Assembly: GCA_000830295.1 (NCBI GenBank)
Contig: CP010425.1
Span: forward strand, 448,001-512,000
Direction of reading: 5' to 3'
Origin: an archaeon GW2011_AR15
GTDB lineage: Archaea; Nanobdellota; Nanobdellia; Woesearchaeales; GW2011-AR15
Length of the DNA stretch: 64,000 bases
Shown: positions 1-57,626 of the stretch, in pieces
Layout: the number at the start of each line of letters is the position of its first letter
Position numbering within the stretch: position 1 is the stretch's first letter
The notes under the pieces: generated by a model
What the model saw: the letters and a program-made list of their open reading frames with translations, nothing else
What the model was told of the DNA's origin: nothing
The model's database searches: none
Position numbers and translations under genes: made by a program

Positions 1-775
1 TCCACAGCTCTTCAACCATGTCAAATGCCGTGTAGCCGTAGCTCTTCTGCTTATACATGAACTCGCCCAGCCTGCCGTTTATATAAGCAGCCTCTTTTGC
101 CGAGTCAAAAAGGTTTCCGGATTGTGCGAGGAATCCTGCGCAGATACCGGCAAGTATGTCTCCTGTCCCTCCCCTTGTCATGGAATTGTGGCCTGTCTTG
201 TTCGTATGCCTCCTGTGCTTTGTGAATATTATGTCCTCCGGGCCTTTCAGGAGCATTATATTATTCCCCAGCTTTTCCTGCATTGCCCTTATGTTCGGCT
301 CCATATCAAGTTCGTCAAATTCCTTTTTGACAGTGTTCTCGTAAAGTATCCTGAATTCCTTCGGGTTCGGGGTAAGTATGCTGTTCGTGGGAACATCCAG
401 TGCAATCACCTTCAGCGCATCTGCGTCTATCACAAAAGGCTTTTTTATGTCCCTGAGAAGCTTGAGCACGAATTCCTTTTTCTCTCCGAGGCCGGGACCA
501 AGCAGCACAACGTCGTAATGTTCGCTCAGCGCCGCAATCTCCTTGGCATGCGTGGGCGCAAGCTCCTCTCCGAGGAATTTCCTTGTCATCAGGTCAGGCG
601 AATAGCTGTTTATCTGCCATGCCACCCTTTCAGGGGCGCAGACTGTTACAATGTCAACCCCTGTCCTGAGTGCGGCTATTGCTGCAAGTGCCGGAGCTCC
701 GACATATTCCCTGCTCCCCCCCACAACAAGGACCTTTCCGTTCTGGCCCTTGATGTCTTTTCGCGTTATTCTCAT
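1..775 (-). CDS. nnrD: ADP/ATP-dependent NAD(P)H-hydrate dehydratase (YjeF C-terminal family), truncated by the window edge
   Basis: Not in the ORF track; read manually from ATG 775: MRITRKDIKGQNGKVLVVGGSREYVGAPALAAIAALRTGVD...LGPGLG...MTRGGTGDILAG; open to position 1. Confidence 0.9.
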   Translation of the reverse strand, partial: MRITRKDIKGQNGKVLVVGGSREYVGAPALAAIAALRTGVDIVTVCAPERVAWQINSYSPDLMTRKFLGEELAPTHAKEIAALSEHYDVVLLGPGLGEKKEFVLKLLRDIKKPFVIDADALKVIALDVPTNSILTPNPKEFRILYENTVKKEFDELDMEPNIRAMQEKLGNNIMLLKGPEDIIFTKHRRHTNKTGHNSMTRGGTGDILAGICAGFLAQSGNLFDSAKEAAYINGRLGEFMYKQKSYGYTAFDMVEELW

Positions 776-6227: not shown

Positions 6228-6228
6228 A

Positions 6229-32986: not shown

Positions 32987-33337
32987 TTATGGCATTATGT
33001 TTCTGCTAAAGAAAAACATAAATGCATATATTATACAGAAAATGATAAAGAAAACATACCAAGAAGACAACAATAAATCCAAGGTTTTATTAGTAAAACC
33101 TTTGGAAATTTCAGTCTCATTAATTCTCCTTCTGTCTTTTGCTTTCCTCTTCTGAATCTTCTTTTTAAATACTTTAAGTTCTTCCTTCCTCATCTCAGGA
33201 AATACAATTGAGGAATAATTACAGTTTCTACACATTTTTCTTGTGGAACCGCCCCAAGCAAGCATATCTCTAGATAGGTCGTTTTCGACATTAGTACTTC
33301 CGCATCTTGGGCAAACCAGAAAAAAGCTTTTTCTCAT
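32987..33337 (-). CDS. Zinc-ribbon membrane protein
   Basis: CPRCGS...CRNCNY plus C-terminal hydrophobic helix; AT-richer than its neighbours. Confidence 0.65.
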   Translation of the reverse strand: MRKSFFLVCPRCGSTNVENDLSRDMLAWGGSTRKMCRNCNYSSIVFPEMRKEELKVFKKKIQKRKAKDRRRINETEISKGFTNKTLDLLLSSWYVFFIIFCIIYAFMFFFSRNIMP

Positions 33338-34669: not shown

Positions 34670-35740
34670 CTAGTGATTATTTCTTACTTCGACCATTTCT
34701 TTTATAATTTCCCTTATATTCATAGTTATTTTCCAATCAGGATAATCTCTCTTAAATTTCGACATATCAGTATAATAGCATATATGGTCTCCAACCCTGT
34801 TTTTGTCGCTGTATCTGTAATCCAGTTTCAGTCCGAATTCTTTTTCTAGGATTTCTATTATCTCAAGTATTGAAGCAGAATTTTCCTTGCCCCCTCCAAG
34901 GTTATAGACAGCGCCCTTTTTCGGTTTTTTATAGAATTCATAGAAAGCAGAAACAACGTCCCTGCTGTGGATCTGGTCCCTAACCTGCTTTCCCTTGTAG
35001 CCGAAAATAGTATACGGCAGTTTTTTCTTTGCGCAGTTCACAATATAAGCCAGGAAGCCATGCAGCTTTACTGCGCTGTGCTGCGGGCCCGTCAGACAGC
35101 CCCCCCTGAACACACCAACATTCAACCCGAAATATTTCCCGTATTCCTGGCACAAAACATCAGCGGCTGTTTTTGAAGCCCCCATAAGACTATGCGTGCT
35201 GTTGTCTATAGACATCTCTTCACTGATACCTTTTTGCGATACCCCAGCCAGCTTTTGTTTTTTCCTGTAATCAAATCTTGCAGCGGTCTCTGTAAGCTCT
35301 GCCATGTTAGGCATATCACCGTATACTTTGTTTGTTGATGTAAATATGAACACGCCATTCTGGGAATAGAGCCTGAATGCCTCGAGAAGGTTAAGAGTGC
35401 CTACAGCATTAATATCAAAATCAGTGAAAGGCTCTTTTGCCGCCCAGTCATGGGAAGGCTGCGCTGCCGTGTGTATTATCAAATCGAATGGTCCTTTTTC
35501 TTTAAACAATTTCAGAATCTTTTCCCTTTCTCTTATATCAACATCCATATGTTCAAAGTTTTTGCTGAGTTTTGTTAGGTATGCGGTATTTCCTCTGGTA
35601 TCTCCGCCTTCTCCGAAGAAATATTTTCTCATATTGTTGTCAATGCCGATGACAGTTGCCCCCTTTTCCAGGAAAGACCTTGAGGATTCAAAACCAATAA
35701 GTCCGCCGCAGCCGGTAATGAGAATTTTTTCTTTTTTCAT
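34670..35740 (-). CDS. NAD-dependent NDP-sugar epimerase (CDP-tyvelose 2-epimerase-like)
   Basis: ITGCGGLIG, HTAAQPSHDWA, STNKVYGD, GKQVRDQIH. Confidence 0.85.
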   Translation of the reverse strand: MKKEKILITGCGGLIGFESSRSFLEKGATVIGIDNNMRKYFFGEGGDTRGNTAYLTKLSKNFEHMDVDIREREKILKLFKEKGPFDLIIHTAAQPSHDWAAKEPFTDFDINAVGTLNLLEAFRLYSQNGVFIFTSTNKVYGDMPNMAELTETAARFDYRKKQKLAGVSQKGISEEMSIDNSTHSLMGASKTAADVLCQEYGKYFGLNVGVFRGGCLTGPQHSAVKLHGFLAYIVNCAKKKLPYTIFGYKGKQVRDQIHSRDVVSAFYEFYKKPKKGAVYNLGGGKENSASILEIIEILEKEFGLKLDYRYSDKNRVGDHICYYTDMSKFKRDYPDWKITMNIREIIKEMVEVRNNH

Positions 35741-36549
35741 CTTTTATTTTCGTTTCTGTATTTATTTAAATCATTTTTTGATTTTATCTTTATCACGCCG
35801 GAAGTGCTCAGATAGCCGTTAAGCAGACCTTTTTTGGCAAGCTCAGGGAACAGCTCGTTTTCCAGGCTGTTGTTTGTGTATTCAAGTATTTCCGGCCTGG
35901 CAACAAAAACAGAGGAAAACCCAAGGTAGATGTCATTTTTATCAGGCTTTTGTATGAAATCCAGTATTTTTGAGCCCTCAACCTTAACAATCCCCTTTTT
36001 GCCTGGATCAGGAGAAGCAGTCAGCAGCAATGTTGCAAACCCCTTTTTCTTGATATGCTCATTCCAGAGCTCTTCCACGTTAAGATGCGGAAACAGTATG
36101 TCGCTATAAACAACAAGGAAATCCGAGGTTATTTTGCCTTTTACAAGCCTCAGCGAGTCAGCTGAGCCTAATGATTCTTTTTCCTCAACATATTCCAGCA
36201 CAACTCCGTATTTTGAGCCGTTCTGCACTATTGAGAATACAGCGTTTATTATGTTTCTTCTGGCAATAAGAAAGACTTTCCTAAAGCCATTTTCCTTCAG
36301 GGTCTTGAGCGTGCTTTCAACCACAGTCATGCTGCCTGCTTTTGCGGTTATCCTGTAGTCTTTATCTGACAGCTTAAGATCCTCTTCAGGCCCGCCTGAG
36401 AGGATTACGGCAACTTTGCTGTCTCCAAGCGCATTATTTACAAGAAGCTCTATTGCCTGGCTCCTGTTCCTTATGTAGATATTGTCTATTATTTCGTCTA
36501 TTTCTCTAAGCGTGCTTTCACTCAGAGTAATAGATATTTTTTCCTTCAT
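35737..36549 (-). CDS. Ribbon-helix-helix DNA-binding domain fused to a degenerate sugar-phosphate nucleotidyltransferase domain
   Basis: MKEKISITLSESTLREID...IRNRSQAIELLV (RHH), then VAVILSGG, YVEEKESLGSADSL, FLVVYSDIL, FIQKP, SLENELFPELA. Confidence 0.8.
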   Translation of the reverse strand: MKEKISITLSESTLREIDEIIDNIYIRNRSQAIELLVNNALGDSKVAVILSGGPEEDLKLSDKDYRITAKAGSMTVVESTLKTLKENGFRKVFLIARRNIINAVFSIVQNGSKYGVVLEYVEEKESLGSADSLRLVKGKITSDFLVVYSDILFPHLNVEELWNEHIKKKGFATLLLTASPDPGKKGIVKVEGSKILDFIQKPDKNDIYLGFSSVFVARPEILEYTNNSLENELFPELAKKGLLNGYLSTSGVIKIKSKNDLNKYRNENKR

Positions 36550-36570
36550 ATACGGGGGTGGGAAAATCAA

Positions 36571-36619
36571 ATATATAAACGTATCGTATAAAGTAGGATA
36601 AGGGTAAGATATTTATATA
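36571..36619. promoter_or_regulatory. Divergent TATA boxes enclosing phased GTAnGATA repeats
   Basis: Minus TATA at 36579-36572, plus TATA at 36612-36619; TATCGTAT 36582-36589 (inverted), GTAGGATA 36593-36600, GTAAGATA 36604-36611. Confidence 0.55.
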
Positions 36620-36639
36620 ATCTGCATTACCAGAGAGCC

Positions 36640-37911
36640 ATGAACATATCAGTTGTAGGTTTGGGTTACGTAGGCCTTATACAGGCCGCAGGAATGGCAA
36701 AACTGGGCCATAATGTGCTTGGCTCTGATATGGATAAGAATAAAGTTGATAAAATCAACAGCAAAGAGCCGCCGATATATGAGAACGGCCTGAAAGAAAT
36801 ACTCCAGGAGACAGTTCCTTCCAGATTTTCAGCTTATCAGGAGCTGAAAAAGCCGTTTATGGAGTCAGATGCCACATTCATCTGTGTCGGCACGCCTTCA
36901 AAGAGGCAGGGAGAGATGTCCCTGCACCAGCTTGAAAATGTGATGAGGCAGTTGGGAGAACTTCTTAAAGAGAAAAAATACCATATTTTTGTAATAAAAA
37001 GTACAGTTGTGCCAGGAACATGCGAGAACATTGTAATCCCGGTTGTTGAAAAAGCAAGCGGAAAAAAGTTCAAAAAAGACTTCTCAGTTGTAATGAACCC
37101 GGAATTCTTAAGAGAAGGGGAGGCGCTTGAGGACTTTTTTGACCCTGACAGGATTGTCCTGGGCAGTTCAGATAAAACAGCACTGAAAAAAATAAAAGAG
37201 ATCTACAGTCCATTCAAATGCCCTGTGCTTGAAACAGGTTTTAAAGAGGCAGAAATGATAAAATATGCCTCAAACGCCTTTCTTGCAACAAAAATATCCT
37301 TCATCAATGAGATTGGGAACATATCAAAGACATTTGGGATAGACACAAACATAGTTGCAAAAGGAATAGGCATGGATAAGAGAATCTCCCCACATTTCCT
37401 GAAGTCAGGGATTGGCTTTGGAGGCAGCTGCTTCCCTAAAGATGTCAATGCTATAGTCTACAAGGCTACAGAAAAGGGATATAATCCAAAATTATTAAGG
37501 TCTGTACTTGATGTCAACAGGGACCAGCCCCTTAAGATGATAGAGCTGCTTGACAGGAAAGAGGGCCCGATTAAGGGAAAGAAAATAGGCCTGCTCGGGC
37601 TTACATTCAAGGCAGGGACAGATGACATAAGGGAAAGCCCGGCGCTTGTTACAATCAAAGAACTGCTTATGGAGGAGGCAGAGCTTTACATATATGATCC
37701 GAAGGCAATGGAAAAGACAAAGAAGCTCTTTCCTCACCTGAATTATCTTAGCTCAGCACAGGAAGTTGTTGATGAGTGCGAGGCAGTACTAATACTTACA
37801 GAATGGCCGGAGTTCAGGACCCTTGATTATGGCAAAAAGCTGGTCATAGACGGCAAGAACCTCTTCTTTGACAACCACAGGCCAGAGAATTACGAGGGGA
37901 TTTGCTGGTAA
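36640..37911 (+). CDS. ugd: UDP-glucose/GDP-mannose 6-dehydrogenase
   Basis: GLGYVG, CVGTP, KSTVVPGT, NPEFLREG, GFGGSCFPKD, FKAGTDDIRES. Confidence 0.9.
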   Translation: MNISVVGLGYVGLIQAAGMAKLGHNVLGSDMDKNKVDKINSKEPPIYENGLKEILQETVPSRFSAYQELKKPFMESDATFICVGTPSKRQGEMSLHQLENVMRQLGELLKEKKYHIFVIKSTVVPGTCENIVIPVVEKASGKKFKKDFSVVMNPEFLREGEALEDFFDPDRIVLGSSDKTALKKIKEIYSPFKCPVLETGFKEAEMIKYASNAFLATKISFINEIGNISKTFGIDTNIVAKGIGMDKRISPHFLKSGIGFGGSCFPKDVNAIVYKATEKGYNPKLLRSVLDVNRDQPLKMIELLDRKEGPIKGKKIGLLGLTFKAGTDDIRESPALVTIKELLMEEAELYIYDPKAMEKTKKLFPHLNYLSSAQEVVDECEAVLILTEWPEFRTLDYGKKLVIDGKNLFFDNHRPENYEGICW

Positions 37912-37990
37912 TTTTTCACCTATAAAATCCTCCTTTCTACATATATTTTAAAGACAAGATATTTAAACAAGAGTATTTTAATTTTGAAAA

Positions 37991-39598
37991 ATGTTTTTTA
38001 AAACCATATTAAAGAAAATATCTAAACACAAGATTGTCCTGTTTTTGATATTATTGAATTTAACCTTAAATCTCATAGGTATTAATTTTGGTCTTCCTGA
38101 TACGTGGCATCCCGATGAACTTACACATTCTGTTACAAGAATGCTGTCAGAAAAAACACTTAATCCTGGAAGATTCACGTATCCTTCTTTTTACCATTAT
38201 GTGCTCATAGCTGCGAATATACCCTATTCGGCATTTTTACTGTTATCAGGAAAAGCGGCGATGTTAGCGACAGATTCAGTACTAAGGCAACAGACAATAG
38301 CAATAATCTTTCTGACGTCTAGGATTGTTACTGCCTTTTTTGGAAGCATACTGGTTTTTCTTATATACATTATAGCAAAAAAAGTCTCGAATGAGAGAGC
38401 GGCCATTATCTCTGCTGCCTTTGCATCTCTAAACATGGCCATAATTACATACTCACATTTTGCAACATCAGACATGCCAGTAACTGTAATGTCTATGCTC
38501 TCTATCTATATGATACTCAGACTTTATGAAAAGCCAATACGTATGAATTATATCCTAACCGGGCTGGCCATAGGGCTTGCTACAGGAACAAAATATTATG
38601 CGGTAGTGTTGGTTCTTTTATTAATAGGAGCGCATTTACTTGCAACAAAAAAAGTTTCAATAAATAAAAATTTAATAATCTCAGGTATGTTGTGCGCTGT
38701 TGGATTTCTAATTACTACCCCTTTTGCAATTCTTGACTTTAACACCTTTTTTAGAGATACCACACTTCTTTTTACGACCGTGCAAACAGTCCAAAATCTT
38801 TACGACCCCGTAACAGCGTTATCCTATTTTTTCCATCTAGATAATGGTCTCGGAACACCCCTTTTTATCCTTAGTTTAATAGGAACAGCATATTGTGTTT
38901 ATTTGGCAAGAAAAAATAATAAATTACTGCTTCTTTTGTCATGGGCAATAGGATATTTTTTGCTTGTATCTTATATCATACACTTCTCATTTTTAAGATA
39001 CATACTTCCTGTTGTGCCAATAATTATTATCTTTGCAGGTGTTTTTTTCAATTATTTGCTTTCATTTAAGAGACACAGAATAATCACTTACTCTTTTCTT
39101 TTTGCAGTTTTGTTATTCAATTTTTCATATGCAATAAAAACAGATATGCTCTTTGTAAAAGATTCTCGTTATTCTTCCACGGAATGGATAAAAGAGAATA
39201 TACCTGATAATTCTAATATATTGATATTTGCGCAAAACCTTAGGTATTTTCCTGACATATCCTCTGAAAAGAACGTAAGTTATCTTAATGTTACAGATTT
39301 TTCAAGTGTTGAAAGTCTAAGAGAAGCAATCAAAAAAATATCACCAGATTATATAATCGAGTCAAGTCTTTACTATAATAGGTACCTCTACTATACCAAC
39401 ATGTATCCAAAAAGATCCCCTCTGCAAGATCTTTTCGGTTATGTGAGCCACGAGCCAGTCGCAACTGATTTTTATAGAGAACTTATAAATGAAAAATTAG
39501 GATATTCATTAATTAAAAAATTCCCGGAAGAAAAAGAGGACGTGCCTGATCCTGAGTTTATAAATCCAACAATTTTAATATTCAAATTAAATAACTAA
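37991..39598 (+). CDS. Multi-pass GT-C glycosyltransferase (PMT/ArnT-like)
   Basis: WHPDE luminal motif, YPSFY, GLATGTKY, RYILPVVP; many TM helices. Confidence 0.8.
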   Translation: MFFKTILKKISKHKIVLFLILLNLTLNLIGINFGLPDTWHPDELTHSVTRMLSEKTLNPGRFTYPSFYHYVLIAANIPYSAFLLLSGKAAMLATDSVLRQQTIAIIFLTSRIVTAFFGSILVFLIYIIAKKVSNERAAIISAAFASLNMAIITYSHFATSDMPVTVMSMLSIYMILRLYEKPIRMNYILTGLAIGLATGTKYYAVVLVLLLIGAHLLATKKVSINKNLIISGMLCAVGFLITTPFAILDFNTFFRDTTLLFTTVQTVQNLYDPVTALSYFFHLDNGLGTPLFILSLIGTAYCVYLARKNNKLLLLLSWAIGYFLLVSYIIHFSFLRYILPVVPIIIIFAGVFFNYLLSFKRHRIITYSFLFAVLLFNFSYAIKTDMLFVKDSRYSSTEWIKENIPDNSNILIFAQNLRYFPDISSEKNVSYLNVTDFSSVESLREAIKKISPDYIIESSLYYNRYLYYTNMYPKRSPLQDLFGYVSHEPVATDFYRELINEKLGYSLIKKFPEEKEDVPDPEFINPTILIFKLNN

Positions 39599-39604
39599 GG
39601 CAAC

Positions 39605-40534
39605 CTAAAGATTATTTTGATACCAATCCACCGTTTTTCTAATGCCTTCTTTAAGTTTTGTTTTTGGGGCCCAATTTAATTTTTTCTTCATTTTTTTAGC
39701 ACTTAAAATTTTTTTCATGGCACCATCCGGCTTTTCAGCCTGCAAAACAAATTCTCCTTCCCAACCAACAATTTCTTTTATTAATTTAGCCATATCTATT
39801 ATAGAAATCCCCTTTGTCACGCCAACATTCATAATTTCGTTGGGCTCAAATTTTTCAATATTCTCTATAGTTTTCAATATTGCCATTGCACCATCCTCAA
39901 CATAGAGCCACTCTCTGACAGGTTTTCCTGTTCCCCATATTTCAACATGCTTTTTGCCTTTATTTTTTGCGTCTACAATTTTTGAAATCAATGCCCCCAA
40001 AGCATGCGACTTGATAATCTCAAAATGGTCTCCGGGCCCATACATATTCGGAAATATCAGATGTACGGGTCTGAAGTTTGGATTGATCTGGCAGTAAGCA
40101 AAACAATGCCCCCAAAGCATCTTTCTTGGCAGACCATAGGTAAGCACGGAAGGATGCATTTCGCCATCCCACCATTTTGATTCCTCATAGATTTCCATAT
40201 TTCCCGGATATGTACAGTTCGGCATTATATTGATTAATATTGGGATGCCTGCTTCATTACATACTTTAACAACATTCATACTAATTATAGAATTATCTTC
40301 AAATACTTCTACAGGATGCAGTTTATTATATGCTATGCCGCCGACATGTGCGGCACAATGAATCATAATATCTGGCCTTATTTTCAGAACATGTTTCCTG
40401 AATAGATCGTAATTAGTTATATCAATACCTTCTTTCCTGCTGACAGAGAAAACTTTGAATTTATTGGACTCAAGAAGTTTAATCACATTCTTTCCCAGAA
40501 ATCCGGTTCCCCCAGTTACAATAATCTTTTTCAT
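39605..40534 (-). CDS. GDP-L-fucose synthase-like epimerase/reductase
   Basis: TGGTGFLG, AAHVGGI, NMYGPGDHF, SHALGALI, WGTGKPVREWLYVED; catalytic YxxxK reads YGLPR. Confidence 0.8.
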   Translation of the reverse strand: MKKIIVTGGTGFLGKNVIKLLESNKFKVFSVSRKEGIDITNYDLFRKHVLKIRPDIMIHCAAHVGGIAYNKLHPVEVFEDNSIISMNVVKVCNEAGIPILINIMPNCTYPGNMEIYEESKWWDGEMHPSVLTYGLPRKMLWGHCFAYCQINPNFRPVHLIFPNMYGPGDHFEIIKSHALGALISKIVDAKNKGKKHVEIWGTGKPVREWLYVEDGAMAILKTIENIEKFEPNEIMNVGVTKGISIIDMAKLIKEIVGWEGEFVLQAEKPDGAMKKILSAKKMKKKLNWAPKTKLKEGIRKTVDWYQNNL

Positions 40535-40569
40535 CTTTATTTAATAAATACACAAACAACTTTTTAAGT

Positions 40570-41331
40570 TTATGCTCTACTTTTCTTTAAAATAACAACA
40601 TATGATGAGCCAAGAGGTCCAGGCTTTCTTTTTTGCACACTTCTTTTTACTATGCCAATTTCAGCATCCATTATCCAACTAAGTACTTTATTTAACGGTT
40701 TAGGGAGGGGTTTCAGCACATTTGAAGACTTCTTGTTTGGGAAGAGCTTTTTCAGAAAAGTAAGAAAAACAAACAAAGGCAACAGAAGAATGTTAAAATG
40801 GCTTATAGTGAGGATTTTCAGCTCGCATTCTTTGGCGATATACCTGATTCTTCCTATATTGTATCTTCTATGATGATGGTATGCATCGTCATTACTGCTC
40901 CAGAGCCATTTATGGGCAGGAACAATAAGAAACAAAATTCCATCTTTTTTGCACACTCTTTTCATTTCGCCTAATGCCCGTATATCGTCTTCAACGTGTT
41001 CGATGACATCAAGGGCAGTTACAATATCAAATGTGTTTTCTTTAAAAGGAATATCGAGAATACTCCCATATCTTATATTTTTTTCAAAACCCCTCTCCTT
41101 GCAGAAATTAATGGCGTTTTCATCCACATCTATGGCCATGAAATCCAGTTTATTTTTTTTCAGATAATCGAGAAATGCCCCTTCACTGCACCCAACATCC
41201 AATAACTTCTTTTTATCTAAATCAGCATACATGTCTTTCAGTAAAGAAATCACTAACTTGTTTCTTGCATTCCCAAACCACCAACCACCTTTTTGCAATG
41301 CATATATTTTTCTGAACACTTCCACTTCCAT
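40570..41331 (-). CDS. Class I SAM-dependent methyltransferase
   Basis: LLDVGCSEG, FDIVTALDVIEHVEDD, VPAHKWLWSSNDDAYHHHRRY. Confidence 0.88.
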   Translation of the reverse strand: MEVEVFRKIYALQKGGWWFGNARNKLVISLLKDMYADLDKKKLLDVGCSEGAFLDYLKKNKLDFMAIDVDENAINFCKERGFEKNIRYGSILDIPFKENTFDIVTALDVIEHVEDDIRALGEMKRVCKKDGILFLIVPAHKWLWSSNDDAYHHHRRYNIGRIRYIAKECELKILTISHFNILLLPLFVFLTFLKKLFPNKKSSNVLKPLPKPLNKVLSWIMDAEIGIVKRSVQKRKPGPLGSSYVVILKKSRA

Positions 41332-41375
41332 ATTAATAACACCGTTTCTCCTTATTTTTATAGATATCTTATTTA

Positions 41376-41846
41376 TTAATCAGCCAAGATGATTTCATCG
41401 ACTGGAATGTCCCATTCATTCGTTTCTAGTTTATTCATTAATTGATGTCTGTAACAAAGACCTACAATTCTTTTTTTCCCTTTTATTTTCTCCAAAAATC
41501 TATCAAAATAACCCTTTCCCCTCCCTTTTCTGTTTCCTTTCTCGTCAAACATCCTTCCCGGCACAAAGAAAATTTCAATATCTTCTTTTGTCACAGCAAT
41601 TCTCTTTTTTGGTTCATCAATCCCGTATGCCCCCTTCTGCAGCAACTCAAATTCTCCGATTTCCGATAATTCAATCTCATTTTTCTCTATATTGGACAGC
41701 GGTACCACAACACGCTTTCCACTAAACATCAGATATTTTATTATATTTCTAGTCTCGACTTCGTCATCCTTTGAAATATAAATAAATATAGTCTTAAAAT
41801 CTCTGCACATCTCCAGAACTTTCCTTTCGTAGTCTTTAATATCCAT
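41376..41846 (-). CDS. 5-formyltetrahydrofolate cyclo-ligase (short N-terminus)
   Basis: DEVET, GAYGIDEP, VPGRMFDEKGNRKGRGKGYFDRFL, WDIPVDEII. Confidence 0.88.
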   Translation of the reverse strand: MDIKDYERKVLEMCRDFKTIFIYISKDDEVETRNIIKYLMFSGKRVVVPLSNIEKNEIELSEIGEFELLQKGAYGIDEPKKRIAVTKEDIEIFFVPGRMFDEKGNRKGRGKGYFDRFLEKIKGKKRIVGLCYRHQLMNKLETNEWDIPVDEIILAD

Positions 41847-41904
41847 ATTAACAGGTTAACCATATGTATAAATAAAGTTTATAAAGATTTCTTAATTATC
41901 TTGG

Positions 41905-42738
41905 ATGATGAAACTACTAGATGGCATGAAAGTCAGTGAAGGTATCTCTACCAATCTTGCAAAAATTACAGGCAAATTAAATTTAAAGCTTTCAATAATC
42001 TTGGTTGGCAAAAACCCATCATCAGTTGTTTATGTAAATGCTAAGAAAAGAAAATGCAATACATTAGATATTGAATGTGATGTAGTTCATTTTGATAATG
42101 ATGTTAAAGAAAAGAAAATTCTCGAAAAAATTGAATTACTTAACAATGATAGGATGGTTTCCGGAATTTTGGTCCAGCTTCCTCTCCCCTCTCATCTTGA
42201 CACAAGAAAAATACTAGATTCTGTTGATATAGGTAAAGATGTCGACGGCCTAAATTCATATTATCTAACAAAAATATTCCTGAATGAGGAGAAAATAGTT
42301 CCATGTACTCCAAAAGGAGTTATAACATTGCTTGATTATTATAAAATTAATTTATACGGCAAAAGGATATGTATTCTTGGTTTTAGCAATATAGTTGGGA
42401 AACCCCTAGCTGCAATGTGTATTAACAGAGGGGGGACGGTAACTATATGCAACAGTAAAACAAAGAATATAAAAGAGCACACACTAAGGTCAGATATAAT
42501 CATGAGCTCTGTTGGGAAACCAAAGCTGGTAACAAAGAACATGGTTTCGGATGGAGCAATTGTTGTAGATATAGGTTTTTCAAAAATTAAAGGAAAGACA
42601 TATGGTGATGTTGATTTTAACAACGTCAAAGAAAAATGCGCATATATATCTCCGGTTCCCGGGGGAGTCGGGCCAATGACAATAGTAAGTCTAATACAAA
42701 ATTTAATTCTCTTAAAGAAACTTAAGGACAATTTCTGA
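41905..42738 (+). CDS. folD: Bifunctional methylene-THF dehydrogenase/methenyl-THF cyclohydrolase
   Basis: YVNAKKRKC, GILVQLPLP, KDVDG, PCTPKGV, SNIVGKP, PVPGGVGPMT. Confidence 0.95.
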   Translation: MMKLLDGMKVSEGISTNLAKITGKLNLKLSIILVGKNPSSVVYVNAKKRKCNTLDIECDVVHFDNDVKEKKILEKIELLNNDRMVSGILVQLPLPSHLDTRKILDSVDIGKDVDGLNSYYLTKIFLNEEKIVPCTPKGVITLLDYYKINLYGKRICILGFSNIVGKPLAAMCINRGGTVTICNSKTKNIKEHTLRSDIIMSSVGKPKLVTKNMVSDGAIVVDIGFSKIKGKTYGDVDFNNVKEKCAYISPVPGGVGPMTIVSLIQNLILLKKLKDNF

Positions 42739-42746
42739 ATCTTTTA

Positions 42747-43541
42747 TCACATTGAATTCCAAAGTTCTTCAAATCTAAAAAACCTCTTTTTATTTTTTCT
42801 GAATAATGCATATCCTTCTCTATTTGGCCATGAGAAGTAAGAATGACCTCCTTCTTTTTGCTTAATCGATTTTATTTTGCCTTTCTTTAACTTATTATTG
42901 ATTTCAGAAATCATCTTCTCTATCAATTTTGAACTCTTATAATATACTCTCTGCATAGTGTCATTGGTATCTATAGTATATTTTTTCTGCAAAATTATTT
43001 CTCCGGTGTCCAGCATCGTATTTATGTAATGTGCAGTTACGCCACCTTTTTTCTCATTGTTCGCCGTGACCCAAAAATACGCACATAGCCCCCTGTATTT
43101 TGGTAATAAAGAATCATGAAAATTTATACAGCCATTCTTTGGGATTTTCAAAACCTCTTCCTTTATTTTCTGTGGATAAGAGACACTATAAATAATATCT
43201 GGCCTTAATTTTTTCATTAAATTTATAGTCTCTTCGCTATTGATATCTGCCGTCTTAAATATTGGAAATTTATATTCTTTTGAATATTTGATAAATGGTT
43301 TTAATTGTCCAATATTTAGTGAAGTTTTGATTCTATAGATTTTCTCTTCAAACCATTTGTAAAGACAAAACTGAAAAAAACTCTTCTTAAGCAAGAACCG
43401 CACCGAGCCAAAGAAAGATTTTTTAGGGATAATGAAATCAGGAAATATTACACCAATAATCTCTTTTTTATTTTCCCTCAAAAAATTTTTCAGGGCAATA
43501 TTTGCATACATGTGGTCATTAGATAAGATAAGTATTTTCAT
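42747..43541 (-). CDS. 10-formyl-THF-dependent formyltransferase (probable sugar N-formyltransferase)
   Basis: INFHDSLLPKYRG, GVTAHYI, LDTGEII; lacks the Fmt C-terminal domain; directly downstream of the aminotransferase. Confidence 0.85.
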   Translation of the reverse strand: MKILILSNDHMYANIALKNFLRENKKEIIGVIFPDFIIPKKSFFGSVRFLLKKSFFQFCLYKWFEEKIYRIKTSLNIGQLKPFIKYSKEYKFPIFKTADINSEETINLMKKLRPDIIYSVSYPQKIKEEVLKIPKNGCINFHDSLLPKYRGLCAYFWVTANNEKKGGVTAHYINTMLDTGEIILQKKYTIDTNDTMQRVYYKSSKLIEKMISEINNKLKKGKIKSIKQKEGGHSYFSWPNREGYALFRKNKKRFFRFEELWNSM

Positions 43542-43563
43542 TCTATGCTTTCAGTTCCAACAA

Positions 43564-44661
43564 TTATTTTTCATAAAATTTGATAATAGTTCTGCAAACA
43601 TATTCTATCTGTTCTTTTGCGAGGCTGCAAAACACAGGCAGAGAAAGGCCACAAGTATAGGCCATCTCGGAAATATGATAGTTCTCATTCTTGCTCTTTA
43701 AATCAGAGAAGCATGGCTGCTTATGCAAAGGATAAAAGAATCTTCTTGTCTCTATCTTGTTTTTTTCAAGATAATCAACAAGTTCTTCTACCTTTTCTGC
43801 AAGAATGTTTGCACGGAAAGGTACGATATTTGTGTAGCTATTTTCTCCAAGAAACTTTATCTGTTTTACATTTTTCAGAAGATTTTTGTACATAGCATAA
43901 TTATTCAGTTTTATTTTCTCAATTTCTCCAAATTTTTTTATTTGAGCAACACCAACGGCGCACTGCAAATCTGTCATTCTAAAGTTCATTCCAATCCCCG
44001 GATGGATAAATGTGCTGCTATGTGGTCTTCCCTGATTCCTAAGAAGCTTTATTCTTTCATATATAATCTCATTATTTGTTAGTATCACCGCACCTTCTCC
44101 TGTTGTTATTGTCTTATCTGCAAAAAAAGAAATCATGCCCACATCCCCAATAGTGCCGGTATGTGTTCCTTTGTAAAATACGCCGAAGCCTTGCGCAGCA
44201 TCCTCGATAACCAGCAGATTGTGTTTTTTTGCAATACGCATTATGGGATCCATATCACATGACTGGCCATAGATATGGACAGGCATTATCGCTTTGGTTT
44301 TTTTGGTTATTTTTTCTTCAATTTTTTCTGGATCCATGTTTAAATCTGTCTTTGCAACATCCACAAAAACAGGAGTTGCACCAGTAAATGCAATTGAGGA
44401 GCCAGAGGCATTAAATGTAAAATCAGACACAATAACTTCATCGCCTTTCTTGATCCCACAGCCAAGCAAACACAGGAACAATGCAAGAGTGCCATTAGAC
44501 GCCAGGAGGGCATATCTGGCTTTTGTAAATTCCTGCAGCCTGTCAAGAAATTCCTTGGCAAAAAGCCCTTCAGACAGCCATTTATTCCTGATAACAATCT
44601 CTAGATTTTGCAATTCCTCCTTGCCAACATAAGGCTCTAATTGTGGTACTTTGTATTCCAT
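43564..44661 (-). CDS. DegT/DnrJ PLP aminotransferase, GDP-perosamine synthase-like
   Basis: SNGTLAL, MPVHIYGQ, IEDAAQG, SFFADKTITTGEG, NFRMTDLQCAVG, ETRRFFYPLHKQP. Confidence 0.85.
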   Translation of the reverse strand: MEYKVPQLEPYVGKEELQNLEIVIRNKWLSEGLFAKEFLDRLQEFTKARYALLASNGTLALFLCLLGCGIKKGDEVIVSDFTFNASGSSIAFTGATPVFVDVAKTDLNMDPEKIEEKITKKTKAIMPVHIYGQSCDMDPIMRIAKKHNLLVIEDAAQGFGVFYKGTHTGTIGDVGMISFFADKTITTGEGAVILTNNEIIYERIKLLRNQGRPHSSTFIHPGIGMNFRMTDLQCAVGVAQIKKFGEIEKIKLNNYAMYKNLLKNVKQIKFLGENSYTNIVPFRANILAEKVEELVDYLEKNKIETRRFFYPLHKQPCFSDLKSKNENYHISEMAYTCGLSLPVFCSLAKEQIEYVCRTIIKFYEK

Positions 44662-44690
44662 GTTTCAACACCTAAAACCATCACTATCGT

Positions 44691-46127
44691 CTAAAATAAT
44701 TTAAATTTTACAAATGCTTTCCAGGCCATCTTGAGCAACAAAAATAAATGCTTGAATTTACTGATTATATTTTTTCCATAGGCCTTTGGTTCACCATATA
44801 TTCTAGGAACATAATGTACAGGTATTTCAACAACTTTTAAATTATGCCCTATTGCTCCGAATATCAGCTCAAAATCACCAAAAGGGTCAAAATCACCAAA
44901 ATAACTTATATTTTTTCTTATCTTAAGATAATTTTTTTTGGAAATGGCTTTGAAACCACACAATGTGTCTGTGAACCTTTGGCCTAAAATAACCGTAAAT
45001 AGGTTTCCAAAGAACCGATTTATTATAAAATTGCCAAAAGGCATAGCATCTTTTTCCATTGCATAGACTAGGCGCGTGCCATTTACATATTCTCCAAGAC
45101 CAAGTGCATATGCATCATAAAAGAGCTTTATCTCTTCCGGCGGGGAAGTAAGGTCTGCTTCAAGCCAGCACACAAAATCACCTTTTGCATTATCGAATCC
45201 CATCCTGAAAGCATCACCCTGTCCAATCCCTCTTTGTTTCAGGAATTTTATATCTTTATCAGGGTATTTCTTAATCATTTCCTTGATTTTTTTGACAGTA
45301 TTGTCTTTTGAATGCCCTTCAACAAACAATATTTCTGTGTTTTTTCCCATAGAAGGTATTTTTTTTACAAGCTCCTCAATATTGCCCTCCTCATCTCTAC
45401 AAGTTATTACAACCGAGGTGGTTATGTCCTTGACATTGTCCGGGGGGCACATTAGCCGGGCTATCACGACTTGTTCAAGGCAAAACCGCCTTATTACCGG
45501 CAATTTTGATATTAATGTGTTTGATGCTTCAGAGACAATGGGAAAATATTTCGGAAACAGGAGGAAAAAATCCCTCTTAATCACTTGGTATCCGGCAATA
45601 TAAAGGAAATTATCAATATCATCTATAGAAGGCCAGTTAAATATCATTTCAGGCTTCTTCATTCCTAAAGATTCAGATATTTTTAGTATAGGGTTCCACA
45701 GTTGATTGTAATAGTTTATTATGAGCCTTGTGTCTGAACTACACATCTTTGAGATATTCTGAAGCAGTCTCTGTATATTCTTTACAGACCCGATAGTACC
45801 GGAGATTATAATATAATCAAATTTAAAATCAACAGAAAAAGATTCAATATCTTCACAATAGAACTTTATTTTAGGATATTTTTTCTTTGCTATTTTTATC
45901 ATTCCATCACTTATATCAACTCCAACACCATAAGAAGAGTAAAGATTTCCAATTAAATTACCAGCACCACATCCAAGCTCCAGTATACTGCTGTTTCTCG
46001 GGATGTTATTTCTATAATATCTTAGTATTTGACTATGATAATACATATTTTTTTTATACCAGGTGTCCCATCTTTTAGAAACAGAATTATTGATCTCCCT
46101 TATTTTATTCAGCTTATCACCCACCAT
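44691..46127 (-). CDS. Methyltransferase-GT2 glycosyltransferase fusion
   Basis: N-terminal LELGCGAG; C-terminal CRDEEGNI, VEGHSKDNT, LEADL, TDTLCGFK, FDPFGDFELIFGA. Confidence 0.85.
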   Translation of the reverse strand: MVGDKLNKIREINNSVSKRWDTWYKKNMYYHSQILRYYRNNIPRNSSILELGCGAGNLIGNLYSSYGVGVDISDGMIKIAKKKYPKIKFYCEDIESFSVDFKFDYIIISGTIGSVKNIQRLLQNISKMCSSDTRLIINYYNQLWNPILKISESLGMKKPEMIFNWPSIDDIDNFLYIAGYQVIKRDFFLLFPKYFPIVSEASNTLISKLPVIRRFCLEQVVIARLMCPPDNVKDITTSVVITCRDEEGNIEELVKKIPSMGKNTEILFVEGHSKDNTVKKIKEMIKKYPDKDIKFLKQRGIGQGDAFRMGFDNAKGDFVCWLEADLTSPPEEIKLFYDAYALGLGEYVNGTRLVYAMEKDAMPFGNFIINRFFGNLFTVILGQRFTDTLCGFKAISKKNYLKIRKNISYFGDFDPFGDFELIFGAIGHNLKVVEIPVHYVPRIYGEPKAYGKNIISKFKHLFLLLKMAWKAFVKFKLF

Positions 46128-46147
46128 AATAGCATTCCAACCCCGCC

Positions 46148-47203
46148 CTAATCATAATATTCGCTCGCGGAGCTTTCCTTCCAGTCAGATTCCACCATAA
46201 TTCTCACAAGCTCTTTAAACTTTGTTTTTGGTTGCCATTTTAGTTTTTTCTTGGCTTTTGTTGAATCCCCAAGCAGCGTATCAACCTCTGCAGGTCTGAA
46301 GTATCCTTTGTCTATTCTAATTATAGCTTTGCCGGTTTTTTTATCGATTCCAACTTCATCCAGGCCTTTACCTTCCCATTTAATCTGAATTCCAAGAACA
46401 TTACATGTTTCTTCAATAAACTCTCTTACAGAATGGTTTTCTCCTGTTGCAATGACATAATCTTCAGGTCTCTCCTGTTGCAGCATAAGCCACATTGCCT
46501 CAACATAATCCTTAGCATACCCCCAATCTCTCTCTGCATTAATATTTCCAAGATAAACACAATCCTGCAATCCTTTTTTCACTCTGCACAGCCCCAATGT
46601 TATTTTTCTTGTTACAAAAGTTTCACCCCTTCTTGGGGATTCATGATTAAACAGGATTCCATTGCAGGCAAATAAATTATAGGCCTCCCTGTAATTTACA
46701 GTTATCCAGTAAGAAAAAACTTTTGCGCAGGCATACGGGCTTCTCGGATGAAACGGGGTTGTTTCTTTCTGTGGTGTCTCCCATACTTTACCAAATATCT
46801 CTGAGCTTGATGCCTGATAGAACCTTGATTTGAACTGATTTTCCCTTAATGCTTCTAGTATTCTCAGCGTGCCCAACGCAATAGTGTCAGCTGTATATTC
46901 AGGAATCTCAAAACTGACTTTTACGTGACTTTGGGCTCCAAGATTGTAAATTTCATTTGGTCTGATAGTCCTTAATATGTGGTTTATGTTACTAGCATCT
47001 GTAAGGTCACCGTATATAGTATCAAATCTTGGATGATTGTAGATATGGTTTATCCTTTTTGTATTAAATGAGCTTGATTTTCTTTGTATCCCATATACAT
47101 TATAGCCTTTTTCCAATAGAAACTCAGCAAGATAGGAGCCGTCCTGCCCAGTAATTCCGGTTATCAATGCCCTTTTGGCGCTTTTTGTTGTCTCGTTAGT
47201 CAT
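46148..47203 (-). CDS. gmd: GDP-mannose 4,6-dehydratase
   Basis: [54 protein letters not shown]. Confidence 0.97.
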
Positions 47204-47295
47204 CCTATTAAGGTGTTAAATTAGTTAATAATCTATATACTTTTTGTTTTTTAAAAGATAAAGCTTAAAATTAGAACAGGTTTCTCTATTATAGT

Positions 47296-48549
47296 ATGTA
47301 TAAAGTTGCAATAATCGGCTTAGGTTATGTCGGCCTTCCTCTGGCATGCCTCTGCGCAAAAAAAGGGCATAAAGTCATAGGGCTGGACATAGACAAAAAC
47401 AAAATCGATAAAATCAATATCGGAGTAAGTCCTCTTGATGATGAATACATCAAAAAAAATCTGAAAAAAGGCGCAATTGTAGCAACTGATGATTTTTCAA
47501 AAATAAAAGCTGCAGAAATCATTGTTATATGCGTTCCAACCCCAGTAAATAAGGAACATCTCCCTGATTTGTCTTTTGTGGAAAAGTCAGTCGAGAGCGT
47601 GTCAAAAAATCTGGAAAAAGGACAATTAGTAGTCTTGGAAAGCACAGTCTACCCCGGCACAACAGAGGAAATAATCAAACCCATTCTTGAAAAATCAGGA
47701 AAAGCATTTTACCTGGCGCACTGCCCTGAAAGGATTGATCCCGGAAACAAAAAATGGACAATTGAGAATATTCCAAGGGTTGTTGGCGGCACAAATCACG
47801 AATCAACAGAAAAGGCCGCAGAATTCTATAGGACAATAATAAGCGCCGATATCATTGAAGTTAAATCATCCAAAGAAGCTGAAGCAACCAAAATAATGGA
47901 GAATACCTTCAGGGATGTCAACATAGCCTTCATCAATGAGATGGCAAAGAGCTTTGACAGGGCAGGAATTGATATTATTGATGTGATAAAAGGGGCGTCC
48001 TCAAAGCCGTTTGCATTCATGCCGCACTATCCGGGGGTAGGAGTCGGTGGCCACTGCATTTCAGTTGATCCCCATTACCTAATTGCAAAGGCAAGAGGAT
48101 ACGGGTTTGAGCATGAATTTCTGAAGCTGGCAAGGAAAATAAACGACAGCATGCCCGAATACACTGTCGAACTTCTGGAAAAAGAGCTGAAAAAATCTGG
48201 AAAAGACCTTGCAGGAGCAAAAGTAGGTGTTCTTGGCCTGGCATACAAAGGCAACATTGACGACATAAGGGAGAGCCCGGCGGTTGAGGTAATAAAGATA
48301 TTAAAAGAGAAAAAAGCAAATGTTGTTGTTTACGATCCCCACATTCCGATAAAATCAGATGCAAAAACTCTTTCAGAACTAGTGGATAAATCAGACTATC
48401 TTATTCTTGTGACTGCGCATGACGAATTCAGAAATATGGATCTTGAGAAACTCAAGGGAAAAATAAAAATAATAATTGATGGAAGGAACTGCCTTGATAA
48501 AAACAAAGTAATAGCTTTGGGCATAAAGTATAAAGGCATAGGAAGGTAG
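47296..48549 (+). CDS. UDP-N-acetylhexosamine dehydrogenase (WbpA/WecC-like)
   Basis: GLGYVGLPLA, ESTVYPGTT, PERIDPGN, ENTFRDVNIA, GVGGHCI. Confidence 0.9.
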   Translation: MYKVAIIGLGYVGLPLACLCAKKGHKVIGLDIDKNKIDKINIGVSPLDDEYIKKNLKKGAIVATDDFSKIKAAEIIVICVPTPVNKEHLPDLSFVEKSVESVSKNLEKGQLVVLESTVYPGTTEEIIKPILEKSGKAFYLAHCPERIDPGNKKWTIENIPRVVGGTNHESTEKAAEFYRTIISADIIEVKSSKEAEATKIMENTFRDVNIAFINEMAKSFDRAGIDIIDVIKGASSKPFAFMPHYPGVGVGGHCISVDPHYLIAKARGYGFEHEFLKLARKINDSMPEYTVELLEKELKKSGKDLAGAKVGVLGLAYKGNIDDIRESPAVEVIKILKEKKANVVVYDPHIPIKSDAKTLSELVDKSDYLILVTAHDEFRNMDLEKLKGKIKIIIDGRNCLDKNKVIALGIKYKGIGR

Positions 48550-48555
48550 CTTCCT

Positions 48556-50106: not shown

Positions 50107-50107
50107 G

Positions 50108-50980
50108 TCAGAACTTTTCACTTAGTTTTGCAATAAAAATATTACTGTCAGCATCATCAGGGGAAACACCTTCTTTTATACAGCTAAGGAAGGCCGCCAC
50201 TTCCTCTTGCAATGGCTCTTTTTCATTTCTAAAAATAGGCTTCAATCTGCTTTTTTCAGACACCAAAATCGTGTTATCTTTCCAGACAAATTCTTTCCCG
50301 GATCTTGTTTTTACTGTAACGCGCTTTTCTTTTTTCTTTGAGACCCTATCTATGTTTATAGTTGCATTATACTTTTTAGATTCTAAACTTAAACTGATGA
50401 TATCGGCATCTGTTTTTACTCCCTTTTTAGTTTTCATGACAAAGCTGTCGGGAGGGTTGCCAGTTAAATCATATACCAAAGTCCAGTCATGCACCGCCAG
50501 ATTCTGGAATATGCTTTCCCCGAAGCTCCCATATTTTTTCCAGTCTGTTTCTATCATAACAGGCGCATCATTCCCCACCAGCTTTTTTAGTTCGATATAG
50601 CACGGATGGTATAAGAAAATATATCCAACAAACAAAACGAGTTTTTTCTTTCTCGCCAGATCATACAATTCTTTAACTTCGTTTTTATTCAATGCCAATG
50701 GTTTTTCCACAAACACGTGTTTTCCTGCAGCAAGAGCATCTTTTGCAATCTTATAGTGCGTGCTTATGGGAGTTGATATGATTACAGCATCAACTGTTTT
50801 GTCATTGAGAATCTCTGAATATTCTCTTGTTATTCTGACAGCAGGATAATGTTCCTTTATCCATCTCTCAGTTTCTTTGCTTTCCTTGTATGCTGTCCAT
50901 TTGACAGTGCTTAGCTTATCAAAAACTCTGAGAAGATTTTTACCCCAGTTGCCTACCCCGATTATTCCGACACTTACCAT
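50108..50980 (-). CDS. Gfo/Idh/MocA oxidoreductase
   Basis: IIGVGNWG, ISTPISTH, HVFVEKPL, LAVHD. Confidence 0.88.
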   Translation of the reverse strand: MVSVGIIGVGNWGKNLLRVFDKLSTVKWTAYKESKETERWIKEHYPAVRITREYSEILNDKTVDAVIISTPISTHYKIAKDALAAGKHVFVEKPLALNKNEVKELYDLARKKKLVLFVGYIFLYHPCYIELKKLVGNDAPVMIETDWKKYGSFGESIFQNLAVHDWTLVYDLTGNPPDSFVMKTKKGVKTDADIISLSLESKKYNATINIDRVSKKKEKRVTVKTRSGKEFVWKDNTILVSEKSRLKPIFRNEKEPLQEEVAAFLSCIKEGVSPDDADSNIFIAKLSEKF

Positions 50981-51015
50981 GGCCAGAAATATATCAAATT
51001 TCTATAAAAAACCTT

Positions 51016-52080: not shown

Positions 52081-52159
52081 ACTTTGCAAGATATGGTGTT
52101 TTTTATTAAACCTTTCTATAGCAGGTAAATATTTAAGTGGCTAATTTATTACTGGTTAC

Positions 52160-53347: not shown

Positions 53348-53381
53348 GATTTAAATAATGTTTTAGGTTTAGGTTTTTCAG

Positions 53382-55910: not shown

Positions 55911-55947
55911 GAAACAATTTATAAATTTTGACATACTTCGGCTTCTT

Positions 55948-57589: not shown

Positions 57590-57626
57590 AATGATCATAC
57601 GTTTAGAAAACAGGGGAAACAACAAT

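Follow-up and report, generated by a model that had tools for sequence, protein, structure and literature searches.

We analysed a 64-kb window of the genome of the archaeon GW2011_AR15 (the whole stretch of 64,000 nucleotides, whose positions serve as coordinates throughout), and in particular a gene that joins a ribbon-helix-helix (RHH) domain to a sugar-1-phosphate nucleotidyltransferase (NT) fold, hereafter RHH-NT, together with a three-box DNA site between this gene and the divergent UDP-glucose 6-dehydrogenase (UGD) gene, ugd (Table 1). In its gene content, the window resembles a Woesearchaeota-type (DPANN) archaeal genome. The open reading frame (ORF) list opens the RHH-NT gene at a TTG at 36570 (35737..36570, minus strand), and we preferred the ATG at 36549, which yields a protein of 270 aa, because all of the relatives share the N-terminus MK.KISIT. 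The stop codon shares four nucleotides (ATGA) with the start of a gene for an SDR sugar-nucleotide epimerase, whose closest solved structure is CDP-tyvelose 2-epimerase (E 5.4e-41), and ugd starts 90 bp upstream of the RHH-NT start on the opposite strand. Both the overlap and the divergence had been described in a sequence-only reading of this DNA, and both stand; the coupling to the epimerase was seen in this genome only, and an SDR of the window type was found downstream in none of the 80 related loci introduced below. The ugd product matched the AglM-type model of NCBIfam with 471 bits and the NDP-sugDHase model with 456 bits. A search of 35000-38000 against Rfam was negative at E <= 1, and an RNA element at the locus was thus rejected as a candidate, as nothing points to one.

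Table 1. Genes, protein domains and promoter elements at the RHH-NT locus, in window positions.
Feature	Position	Strand	Evidence or remark
RHH-NT gene (protein P0001), 270 aa + stop	35737..36549	-	PF00483 match; ATG start agrees with relatives
SDR sugar-nucleotide epimerase gene, 356 aa	34670..35740	-	directly downstream of RHH-NT gene
UDP-glucose 6-dehydrogenase gene (ugd)	36640..37911	+	UDPG_MGDP_dh N, central and C domains (Pfam)
RHH DNA-binding domain (predicted), residues 1-45; strand KISITL, helices 11-20 and 29-40	36415..36549	-	RHH_1, NikR profile match, AlphaFold2 helices
NT-like domain, residues 46-270, proposed sensor	35740..36414	-	PF00483; Foldseek 7x8j E 1.1e-18, 7d72/7d74, RmlA
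Signature loop LSGGPEEDLK, residues 50-59, replacing GxGTRLxP	36373..36402	-	alignments; 0/75 clade members with GxG[TS]R
TATA box of RHH-NT gene, TTTATATA on minus strand	36572..36579	-	centre about 26 nt from ATG
Box 3, TATACGAT	36583..36590	-	overlaps TFB-recognition element (BRE) position of RHH-NT promoter
Box 2, TATCCTAC	36593..36600	-	middle box
Box 1, TATCTTAC	36604..36611	-	abuts ugd TATA box, BRE position of ugd promoter
TATA box of ugd, TTTATATA	36612..36619	+	centre about 25 nt from ATG

We then investigated the conservation of the intergenic DNA. A genome scan matched 245 stretches, 186 of which encode a relative of RHH-NT, and the best 80, from Woesearchaeota/Nanoarchaeota, were kept as comparative loci. 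The window DNA was resolved into a 29-bp site of three TATCYTAC-like boxes starting at 0, 11 and 21, and all 48 intergenic regions of up to 145 bp contained TTTAAATATCTTACCnTTATCCTACTTTATnC(G/T)A(T/C). The information content reached at least 1.5 bits at 18 of the 29 core positions and the full 2 bits at 11, against about 0.1-0.9 bits in the flanks. The sequence-only reading had suggested a survey of the architecture and its upstream motifs; the architecture proved to be widespread, as described below, and a matrix built from 48 sites detected exactly one site per locus, in a single orientation, in 78 of the 80 loci, with scores of 30-48 out of a possible 48.7 bits. Among the resulting 79 sites (78 loci plus the window), 31 were independent of the building of the matrix. 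The window site (36583-36611) scored 46.4 bits and was the only one in 64 kb, as no further site reached 8 bits elsewhere in the window and no second site reached 12 bits in any locus.

Over 74 sequences, the mean pairwise identity of the 29-bp site was 86%. Its left and right flanks reached 35% and 32%, synonymous third positions (at identical residues) 43%, and positions 1 and 2 of the codons of the RHH domain 81%. Since neutral sites are saturated, the 29-bp site is under strong selection. The composite pattern occurred once in the window and in none of 100 shuffles, and the single box TATCYTAC gave 4 matches in the window versus 2.27 expected. The single boxes are thus not enriched and were ruled out as a guide to a wider regulon, and the weight of the site comes from its conservation across the loci. 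These results support the three boxes as a real and strongly conserved cis-element that is tied to the RHH-NT gene and ugd. Box 3 occurs in two forms, T-A-T-n-C-T-A-C as a third direct repeat or the palindrome-like T-A-T-n-C-G-A-T-A, and the window has the second. The sequence-only reading had placed three boxes between the TATA boxes at 11-bp spacing, one of them inverted. The three boxes do lie there, but the relatives favour taking box 3 as a direct repeat, and its spacing to box 2 is then 10 bp; the inverted reading of box 3 (36582-36589), a palindromic reading of the same bases, gives 11 bp.

The site holds a fixed position relative to one of the two promoters. In the window, the two TATA boxes form a perfect inverted repeat, 32 nt apart, with the three boxes between them, and their centres lie 25-26 nt from each ATG, a spacing that points to leaderless transcripts. 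Other operon heads of the window, whose upstream sequences were judged by eye, likewise have a TATA-like element some 26 nt ahead of the ATG. At each of the 79 sites, box 1 directly adjoins the TATA box of ugd, and in 41 of 78 it lies 30-34 nt from the ugd ATG. The distance from the site to the RHH-NT gene ranges from 26 to 498 nt. In 39 of 77 sites, box 1 is 60-70 nt from the RHH-NT ATG, and box 3 is followed by a TATA box belonging to this gene (the element is at +31..38 from box 1 in window-type relatives); in 19 of 77, the RHH-NT ATG is 26-44 nt from box 1 and a second TATA box is lacking; the remaining sites have longer distances. In the window type, the boxes fill the BRE positions of both promoters, in agreement with the sequence-only reading, and in the compact type they stand between the sole TATA box and the RHH-NT start. 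In some loci with extra DNA between the genes, the site is found with the ugd promoter (for example L019, L024 and L060), and in other spaced loci it is found with the RHH-NT gene, and a different first gene heads the ugd operon (for example L055, L066 and L079). In one subclade, this place adjoining the three-box site is taken by a conserved 305-aa gene with no NCBIfam match (5007-5924 on the minus strand in L055, with counterparts in L057, L065, L066, L069, L071, L076 and L079).

The compact loci (for example L042 at 5936-5994, L028 and L054) have about 58-75 bp between the start codons and a single near-palindromic TATA box, TTTAAATA. Judged by eye, without a count, this box is some 26 and 34 nt away from the ATGs of ugd and RHH-NT, respectively, and the arrangement may be a truly bidirectional archaeal promoter. 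Elsewhere in the window, the stretch 53340-53381, upstream of the SDR gene at 53382, reads GGGATAAGATTTAAATA and resembles the ugd-promoter box 1 plus TATA box GGGTAAGATATTTATATA. It has no score in the three-box matrix, and may represent a BRE flavour common to both promoters or else a weak site with one box.

We next consider the gene on the other side of the site. A UGD-like gene is located upstream of RHH-NT on the opposite strand in 77 of the 80 loci. The exceptions are L001, in which the sequence ends 76 nt upstream, L045, with a same-strand 196-aa ORF directly upstream (RHH-NT region 5403-6795), and L072, with a tRNA-splicing endonuclease gene directly upstream on the same strand (region 5383-6798). 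Thirteen of the UGD-like proteins were tested against NCBIfam, and all 13 gave a UDP-glucose 6-dehydrogenase equivalog model of one of two subtypes as the best match (AglM type, 426-490 bits, or TuaD type, 507-622 bits), with the proviso that the general NDP-sugar dehydrogenase model scored 0.9 bits above the equivalog model for the L075 protein. The scores lie under the equivalog cut-offs and far over the NDP-sugar dehydrogenase subfamily cut-off.

The UGD subtypes were labelled on a maximum-likelihood tree of 75 RHH-NT proteins by identity to the window UGD (>= 58% or < 50%), and NCBIfam agreed with the label for 12 of the 13 proteins; the label of L075 (46% identity, best match AglM type) is probably wrong. 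The distribution of subtypes on this tree needs 5-6 changes, at least 2-3 of which are forced by the starred branches, and a single change was found in none of 200 bootstrap trees, in a bootstrap that is not fully settled. The UGD subtype has thus been exchanged at least twice while the putative regulator kept its place beside a UGD gene, so that its link with ugd appears to follow function, and not just inheritance. In 46 of the 69 judgeable loci, the gene immediately after ugd encodes a canonical NT, as in the orders UGD - NT - SDR in L042 and 305-aa gene - UGD - NT in L055; the window's own clade is without this NT gene.

These comparisons also bear on the proposal in the sequence-only reading that the gene stands at the head of a glycan island and controls surface-glycan precursor genes. 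The scope of that proposal was not upheld, as the window contains one site, and ugd, often together with the canonical NT gene, is the only conserved partner; among the other window neighbours of RHH-NT, no conserved partner was found across the 80 loci. Island-wide control was therefore rejected, since the window's SDR, a PMT-like gene (37991-39598) and a second SDR (39605-40534) are not syntenic in the relatives. The interpretation in the sequence-only reading is partly supported, and is sharpened to a ugd-specific putative regulator with a lineage-wide operator in place of an island-wide one.

The protein itself was analysed by domain, profile and structure searches. PF00483 (NTP_transferase) matched residues 47-235 (E 4.3e-15, 56.4 bits), and a Pfam search of 34 window proteins found this domain in RHH-NT only. 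At the N-terminus, RHH_1 matched 22 of the 72 family members of alignment A3 at E <= 0.01 (best 5.4e-8), and the RHH assignment becomes firm once the relatives are included. A profile of the N-terminal 45 residues from 27 sequences retrieved Pyrococcus horikoshii NikR (2bj1) with E 1.1e-4, followed by an RHH antitoxin (4.7e-4), Escherichia coli NikR (1q5v; 0.021) and CopG (0.71), and the strand KISIT and the helix NRSQAIE are invariant or near-invariant among the relatives. The AlphaFold2 monomer model, built with 72 sequences (pLDDT 95, pTM 0.87), consists of an extended N-terminus, helices at 11-20 and 29-40, and an alpha/beta domain. Its top Foldseek matches were GDP-mannose pyrophosphorylases and RmlA, including VTC1 (7x8j, E 1.1e-18, TM 0.70) and human GMPPA/GMPPB (7d72 and 7d74); the E values to VTC1, GMPPB and RmlA were 1e-18 to 1e-16. 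The protein is thus a member of PF00483 by sequence and fold and of the RHH superfamily by sequence, and the fusion seen in the sequence-only reading is borne out. A toxin-antitoxin reading was rejected, because PF00483 differs from the minimal nucleotidyltransferase of toxin-antitoxin systems, to which the papers retrieved on this point relate.

For the active site, two canonical enzymes encoded beside ugd in relatives (L042, 244 aa, and L055, 325 aa) were used as reference NTs. The canonical GxGTRLxPxTxxxPKPL aligned with GGPEEDLK-LSDKDYRIT, so that the replacement of the GxGTRxxP...PK signature described in the sequence-only reading is real; the place of the PK lysine reads YRI, and the canonical W.D.G aligned with VIKIKS. 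Among the 75 full-length clade members (74 loci plus the window), GxG[TS]R, PKP and W.D.G were each kept in none, 74 kept QKP and 73 a GD-type motif, and 67 have Arg in place of the lysine ([YF]R). Behind GG, the clade has a variable, acidic loop (for example PEED, DEKS or PEEK). K201 is invariant in alignment A1, and D150 is invariant in A2 and nearly so in A1 and A3. We take the lost residues to be the catalytic Arg and Lys and the second metal-binding Asp, as in RmlA-type enzymes. The absence of catalysis-specific residues combined with the retention of sugar-phosphate-binding motifs is the pattern that a ligand-binding pseudoenzyme would show, and suggests that RHH-NT has lost nucleotidyltransferase activity. 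The proposal that an enzyme fold is here reused as a sensor, already made in the sequence-only reading, is the most economical explanation of these motif counts.

The family extends beyond this clade. A word-index protein search gave 479 proteins at E <= 1e-3 among 2132 candidates, and the 120 listed of those 479, from Woesearchaeota/Nanoarchaeota, show 47-74% identity, have lengths of 219-302 aa and, where named, are called sugar phosphate nucleotidyltransferase, NDP-sugar pyrophosphorylase or hypothetical. An exhaustive search of 50%-identity representatives gave 3492 matches at E <= 1e-3, plain NT enzymes included, of which 418 lay at <= 1e-10 and 34 at <= 1e-30. In most of the best 150 representatives, the alignment begins within the first few residues, and the RHH-NT architecture is thus widely distributed; its distant clusters show 26-49% identity. 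Rough counts by regular expressions on a MAFFT alignment of 124 rows of 235-310 aa (123 of the best 150 plus the query) found GxG[TS]R kept in 5, PK in 26, a W.D-type motif in 32, all three in 3, and none of the three in 81. One of these proteins, P0262, reads GGKGTRLRPLTNKKPKPL and W.D.G, i.e., it has canonical motifs.

One distant member comes from an Aenigmarchaeota metagenome-assembled genome. The commonest phyla among ESM Atlas look-alike clusters were Woesearchaeota, Aenigmatarchaeota, Nanobdellota and Methanobacteriota, with RHH_1 on 80% of the members of a Methanobacteriota cluster, and these serve as leads only. Many of the comparative loci are titled 'uncultured Methanosarcinales archaeon' (L002, L005, L006, L017, L027 and others), and one each Saccharibacteria and Micrarchaeota. 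Their RHH-NT proteins nest among the Woesearchaeota/Nanoarchaeota rows in the tree, and such titles are probably automatic labels that give no guide to the family range.

From the observed architecture, motif loss, conserved site and fixed site position, we infer the binding of the protein to the site, the kind of ligand and the sign of regulation. With good confidence, we regard RHH-NT as a DNA-binding regulator of ugd and of itself, and very likely as a hitherto uncharacterised regulator of the supply of sugar precursors for the cell surface. The NT-like domain probably acts as a sensor. The fuller picture that we favour, with some reservation, is of a one-component RHH regulator, likely a repressor, that would control ugd and its own gene from the BRE positions, and whose dead NT domain would sense a UDP-sugar or a nucleotide. 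In such a mechanism, the N-terminal RHH domain would dimerise, and about three RHH dimers would bind the three TATCYTAC-type boxes, which, at spacings of 11 and 10 bp, share one face of the helix. With the boxes filling the 32 bp between the back-to-back TATA boxes, the bound protein would cover both BREs and block TFB, and in the compact loci RNA polymerase. The most likely outcome would be the repression of ugd and of the regulator's own transcript, which in this genome would also carry the SDR epimerase gene. The C-terminal NT-like domain would bind a pathway metabolite and thereby shift the DNA affinity, with UDP-glucose, UDP-glucuronate or a derivative, UTP, and glucose-1-phosphate as candidate ligands. 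Co-repression by the product, UDP-glucuronate or a derivative, and induction by the substrate, UDP-glucose, would fit equally well.

Several observations weigh against this picture. The RHH_1 match to the first 60 residues of the window protein (E 0.0012, 19.1 bits) falls below the Pfam cut-off of 20.5, and DSSP assigned no strand to residues 1-10 of the AlphaFold2 monomer, as would be expected if the strand pairs only within the dimer. Neither the three-box site nor ugd was found within 6 kb of the RHH-NT gene in L045 and L072; both lie inside a clade whose other members have the site in a quick tree, which indicates a secondary relocation. A tblastn search of the window with the two relatives' NT proteins at E <= 1e-3 detected no canonical NT gene, so that the pathway link of the relatives is incomplete here. 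The Arg at the lysine place, together with QKP and GD, leaves a small chance of residual catalysis. Furthermore, box 1 stands exactly at the expected BRE place and is like the purine-rich stretch before another TATA box of the window (upstream of 53382), and its conservation could partly reflect promoter function. The proposed assignment of the site to the RHH-NT protein rests on co-occurrence and adjacency, and the evidence would fit a repressor and an activator alike and singles out no ligand.

In a rival explanation, the same DNA-binding protein might mainly activate ugd, recruiting TFB/TBP from just upstream of the TATA box, perhaps while still repressing its own promoter. Archaeal regulators that bind upstream of BRE/TATA, such as Ptr2, GvpE and TrmBL1, often activate, and the fixed position of the site, immediately before the TATA box of ugd in every one of the 79 cases, against a distance of 26-498 nt to the RHH-NT gene, would suit an activator, as would the compact loci, in which the boxes lie upstream of the sole TATA box for ugd and downstream of it for RHH-NT. 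However, box 1 leaves no gap to the TATA box and occupies the BRE itself, which favours competition with TFB, and we consider mainly activation unlikely.

Two further explanations were considered. In one, RHH-NT would be a bifunctional enzyme-regulator like PutA, BirA or NadR, whose NT domain makes an NDP-sugar through a non-canonical active site while the RHH domain autoregulates. The conserved QKP, GD aspartate and Arg at the PK lysine position agree with this, as do the canonical members of the wider family (GxG[TS]R in 5 of 124 and all three motifs in 3 of 124, P0262 among them) and the lack of a canonical NT gene detectable by tblastn in the window. We nevertheless judge it improbable: no clade member has GxG[TS]R or W.D.G (0/75), the acidic and variable nucleotide-phosphate loop (PEED, DEKS) speaks against triphosphate binding and against selection on the loop, and the target operon itself encodes a canonical NT at 46 of the 69 judgeable loci. 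In the other, the DNA would merely be a shared bidirectional promoter core or be bound by another factor, and the protein would be a GMPPA-like regulatory subunit of an NT or of UGD, with the RHH domain for oligomerisation. GMPPA and GMPPB are indeed among the top fold matches, box 1 is BRE-like, and linkage to ugd and NT genes would be expected here as well. However, direct heptamer repeats at helical-turn spacing, such as boxes 1 and 2 form (joined by box 3 in the compact loci), would not arise from two opposed BREs; box 3 is retained where the second TATA box is absent; and the site is conserved above codon positions 1 and 2 of the RHH domain. The strand KISIT and the helix NRSQAIE are conserved as for a DNA-reading surface, and the protein ends at residue 270, without the C-terminal left-handed beta-helix of GMPPA-type proteins, the matched structures being 357-407 residues long. 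To this explanation we thus give very little credence, and the one-component regulator of ugd and itself, likely a repressor, remains the reading that we prefer.

We offer a further-reaching version of the repressor reading tentatively as a possibility. In this version, the NT-like domain would be a true sensor of UDP-glucuronate or UDP-glucose, the protein a lineage-wide feedback controller of uronic-acid precursors in Woesearchaeales that acts through BRE occlusion at a bidirectional promoter, and the wider family a record of the steps from enzyme to sensor. If so, the wider RHH-NT family, in Aenigmatarchaeota and others, would preserve the passage from a DNA-binding pathway enzyme with canonical motifs to a pure sensor with degenerate ones. 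The NT fold would then join the enzyme folds recruited as transcription-factor sensors, as the first case for this fold, and the locus would provide the first defined set of transcription factor, operator and effector in DPANN archaea. To our knowledge, experiments have as yet revealed next to nothing of how genes are regulated in DPANN archaea, organisms that so far resist growth on their own. The locus is a complete unit, with a small soluble protein, a 29-bp site better conserved than the adjoining coding sequence, a defined target, often accompanied by the gene for a UDP-glucose-forming enzyme, and few candidate ligands. In addition, hundreds of proteins named 'sugar phosphate nucleotidyltransferase' or 'NDP-sugar pyrophosphorylase' are probably regulators and not enzymes. 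Literature searches, with subscription journals outside their coverage, turned up no description of an RHH-nucleotidyltransferase regulator or of this fold as a sensor in a transcription factor; within that coverage, no paper on the architecture was found, in line with the statement in the sequence-only reading that no characterised example is known.

The remaining window genes include further sugar-related sets. Downstream of ugd, the GC content drops from 0.41-0.48 to 0.32-0.38 over the glycan genes at 38000-58000, a block that encodes a GT2-methyltransferase fusion, a GDP-mannose 4,6-dehydratase, a flippase, GT1s, two DegT aminotransferases, a GNAT and, at 47296-48549, a second NDP-sugar dehydrogenase, and that looks like a variable or acquired surface-glycan island. 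The block also holds two folate enzymes, 5-formyl-tetrahydrofolate cyclo-ligase (41376-41846) and FolD (41905-42738), which adjoin a formyltransferase (42747-43541) and a DegT aminotransferase (43564-44661); the set at 41376-44661 suggests the synthesis of an N-formylated amino sugar with its own supply of formyl donor. A heptose-type set on the minus strand at 57627-61104 comprises a fusion of HAD and cytidylyltransferase-like domains, a PfkB kinase, an SDR epimerase and a SIS-domain protein. Beside the tyrosyl-tRNA synthetase gene, 32987-33337 (minus strand) encodes a protein of 116 aa that has a hydrophobic C-terminus and weakly matches a TFIIB-type zinc ribbon (23.3 bits, under the cut-off).

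Compared with known systems, RHH-NT shares the fold and the QKP and GD motifs with the active PF00483 enzymes (RmlA, GalU/AglF, GMPP and the GlmU N-domain), but fails their three defining motifs. Its proposed sensor domain is most like GMPPA, which, in the account of PMC11228364, is a non-catalytic paralogue that binds GDP-mannose and regulates GMPPB, and so acts as a feedback sensor for the NDP-sugar of its pathway. Both proteins belong to the PF00483 fold family and have lost catalytic residues while keeping the fold; however, GMPPA acts by binding the active enzyme, has a beta-helix domain and lacks a DNA-binding domain, whereas RHH-NT carries an RHH domain and is tied to a DNA site.

The general DNA-binding mode of RHH proteins is described in PMC3413123. 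The best solved match to the N-terminal profile is NikR, which has an N-terminal RHH domain of closely similar sequence (SI.I...L...D.II....NRS.AI..L) and the same one-component plan of an RHH domain followed by a C-terminal ligand-binding domain. Only residues 5-39 align, however; the C-terminal domain of RHH-NT has the NT (GT-A-like) fold in place of the metal-binding, ACT-like tetramerisation domain, the expected ligand would be a nucleotide or sugar and not nickel, and the operator consists of three direct boxes, where that of NikR is a two-part palindrome. Tandem-repeat RHH repressors include Arc, MetJ, CopG and omega of pSM19035, MetJ binding S-adenosylmethionine within the RHH fold, and AmrZ is an RHH regulator of the GDP-mannose dehydrogenase gene algD. 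The RHH-NT site resembles those of the tandem-repeat repressors in its short repeated boxes about one helical turn apart, suited to RHH dimers, and the proposed target resembles that of AmrZ, as an NDP-sugar dehydrogenase operon; unlike RHH-NT, all of these are small RHH proteins without an enzyme-like sensor domain. PutA combines an RHH domain with proline dehydrogenase and pyrroline-5-carboxylate dehydrogenase and has several repeated sites in a divergent intergenic region, and other enzyme-derived regulators include NadR, BirA, NrtR, the ROK repressors and Bacillus subtilis PurR. As in these proteins, a DNA-binding domain in RHH-NT is joined to an enzyme fold of the pathway that it would regulate; PutA, BirA and NadR remain active enzymes, whereas RHH-NT, with its degenerate active site, is set in an archaeal BRE/TATA promoter pair.

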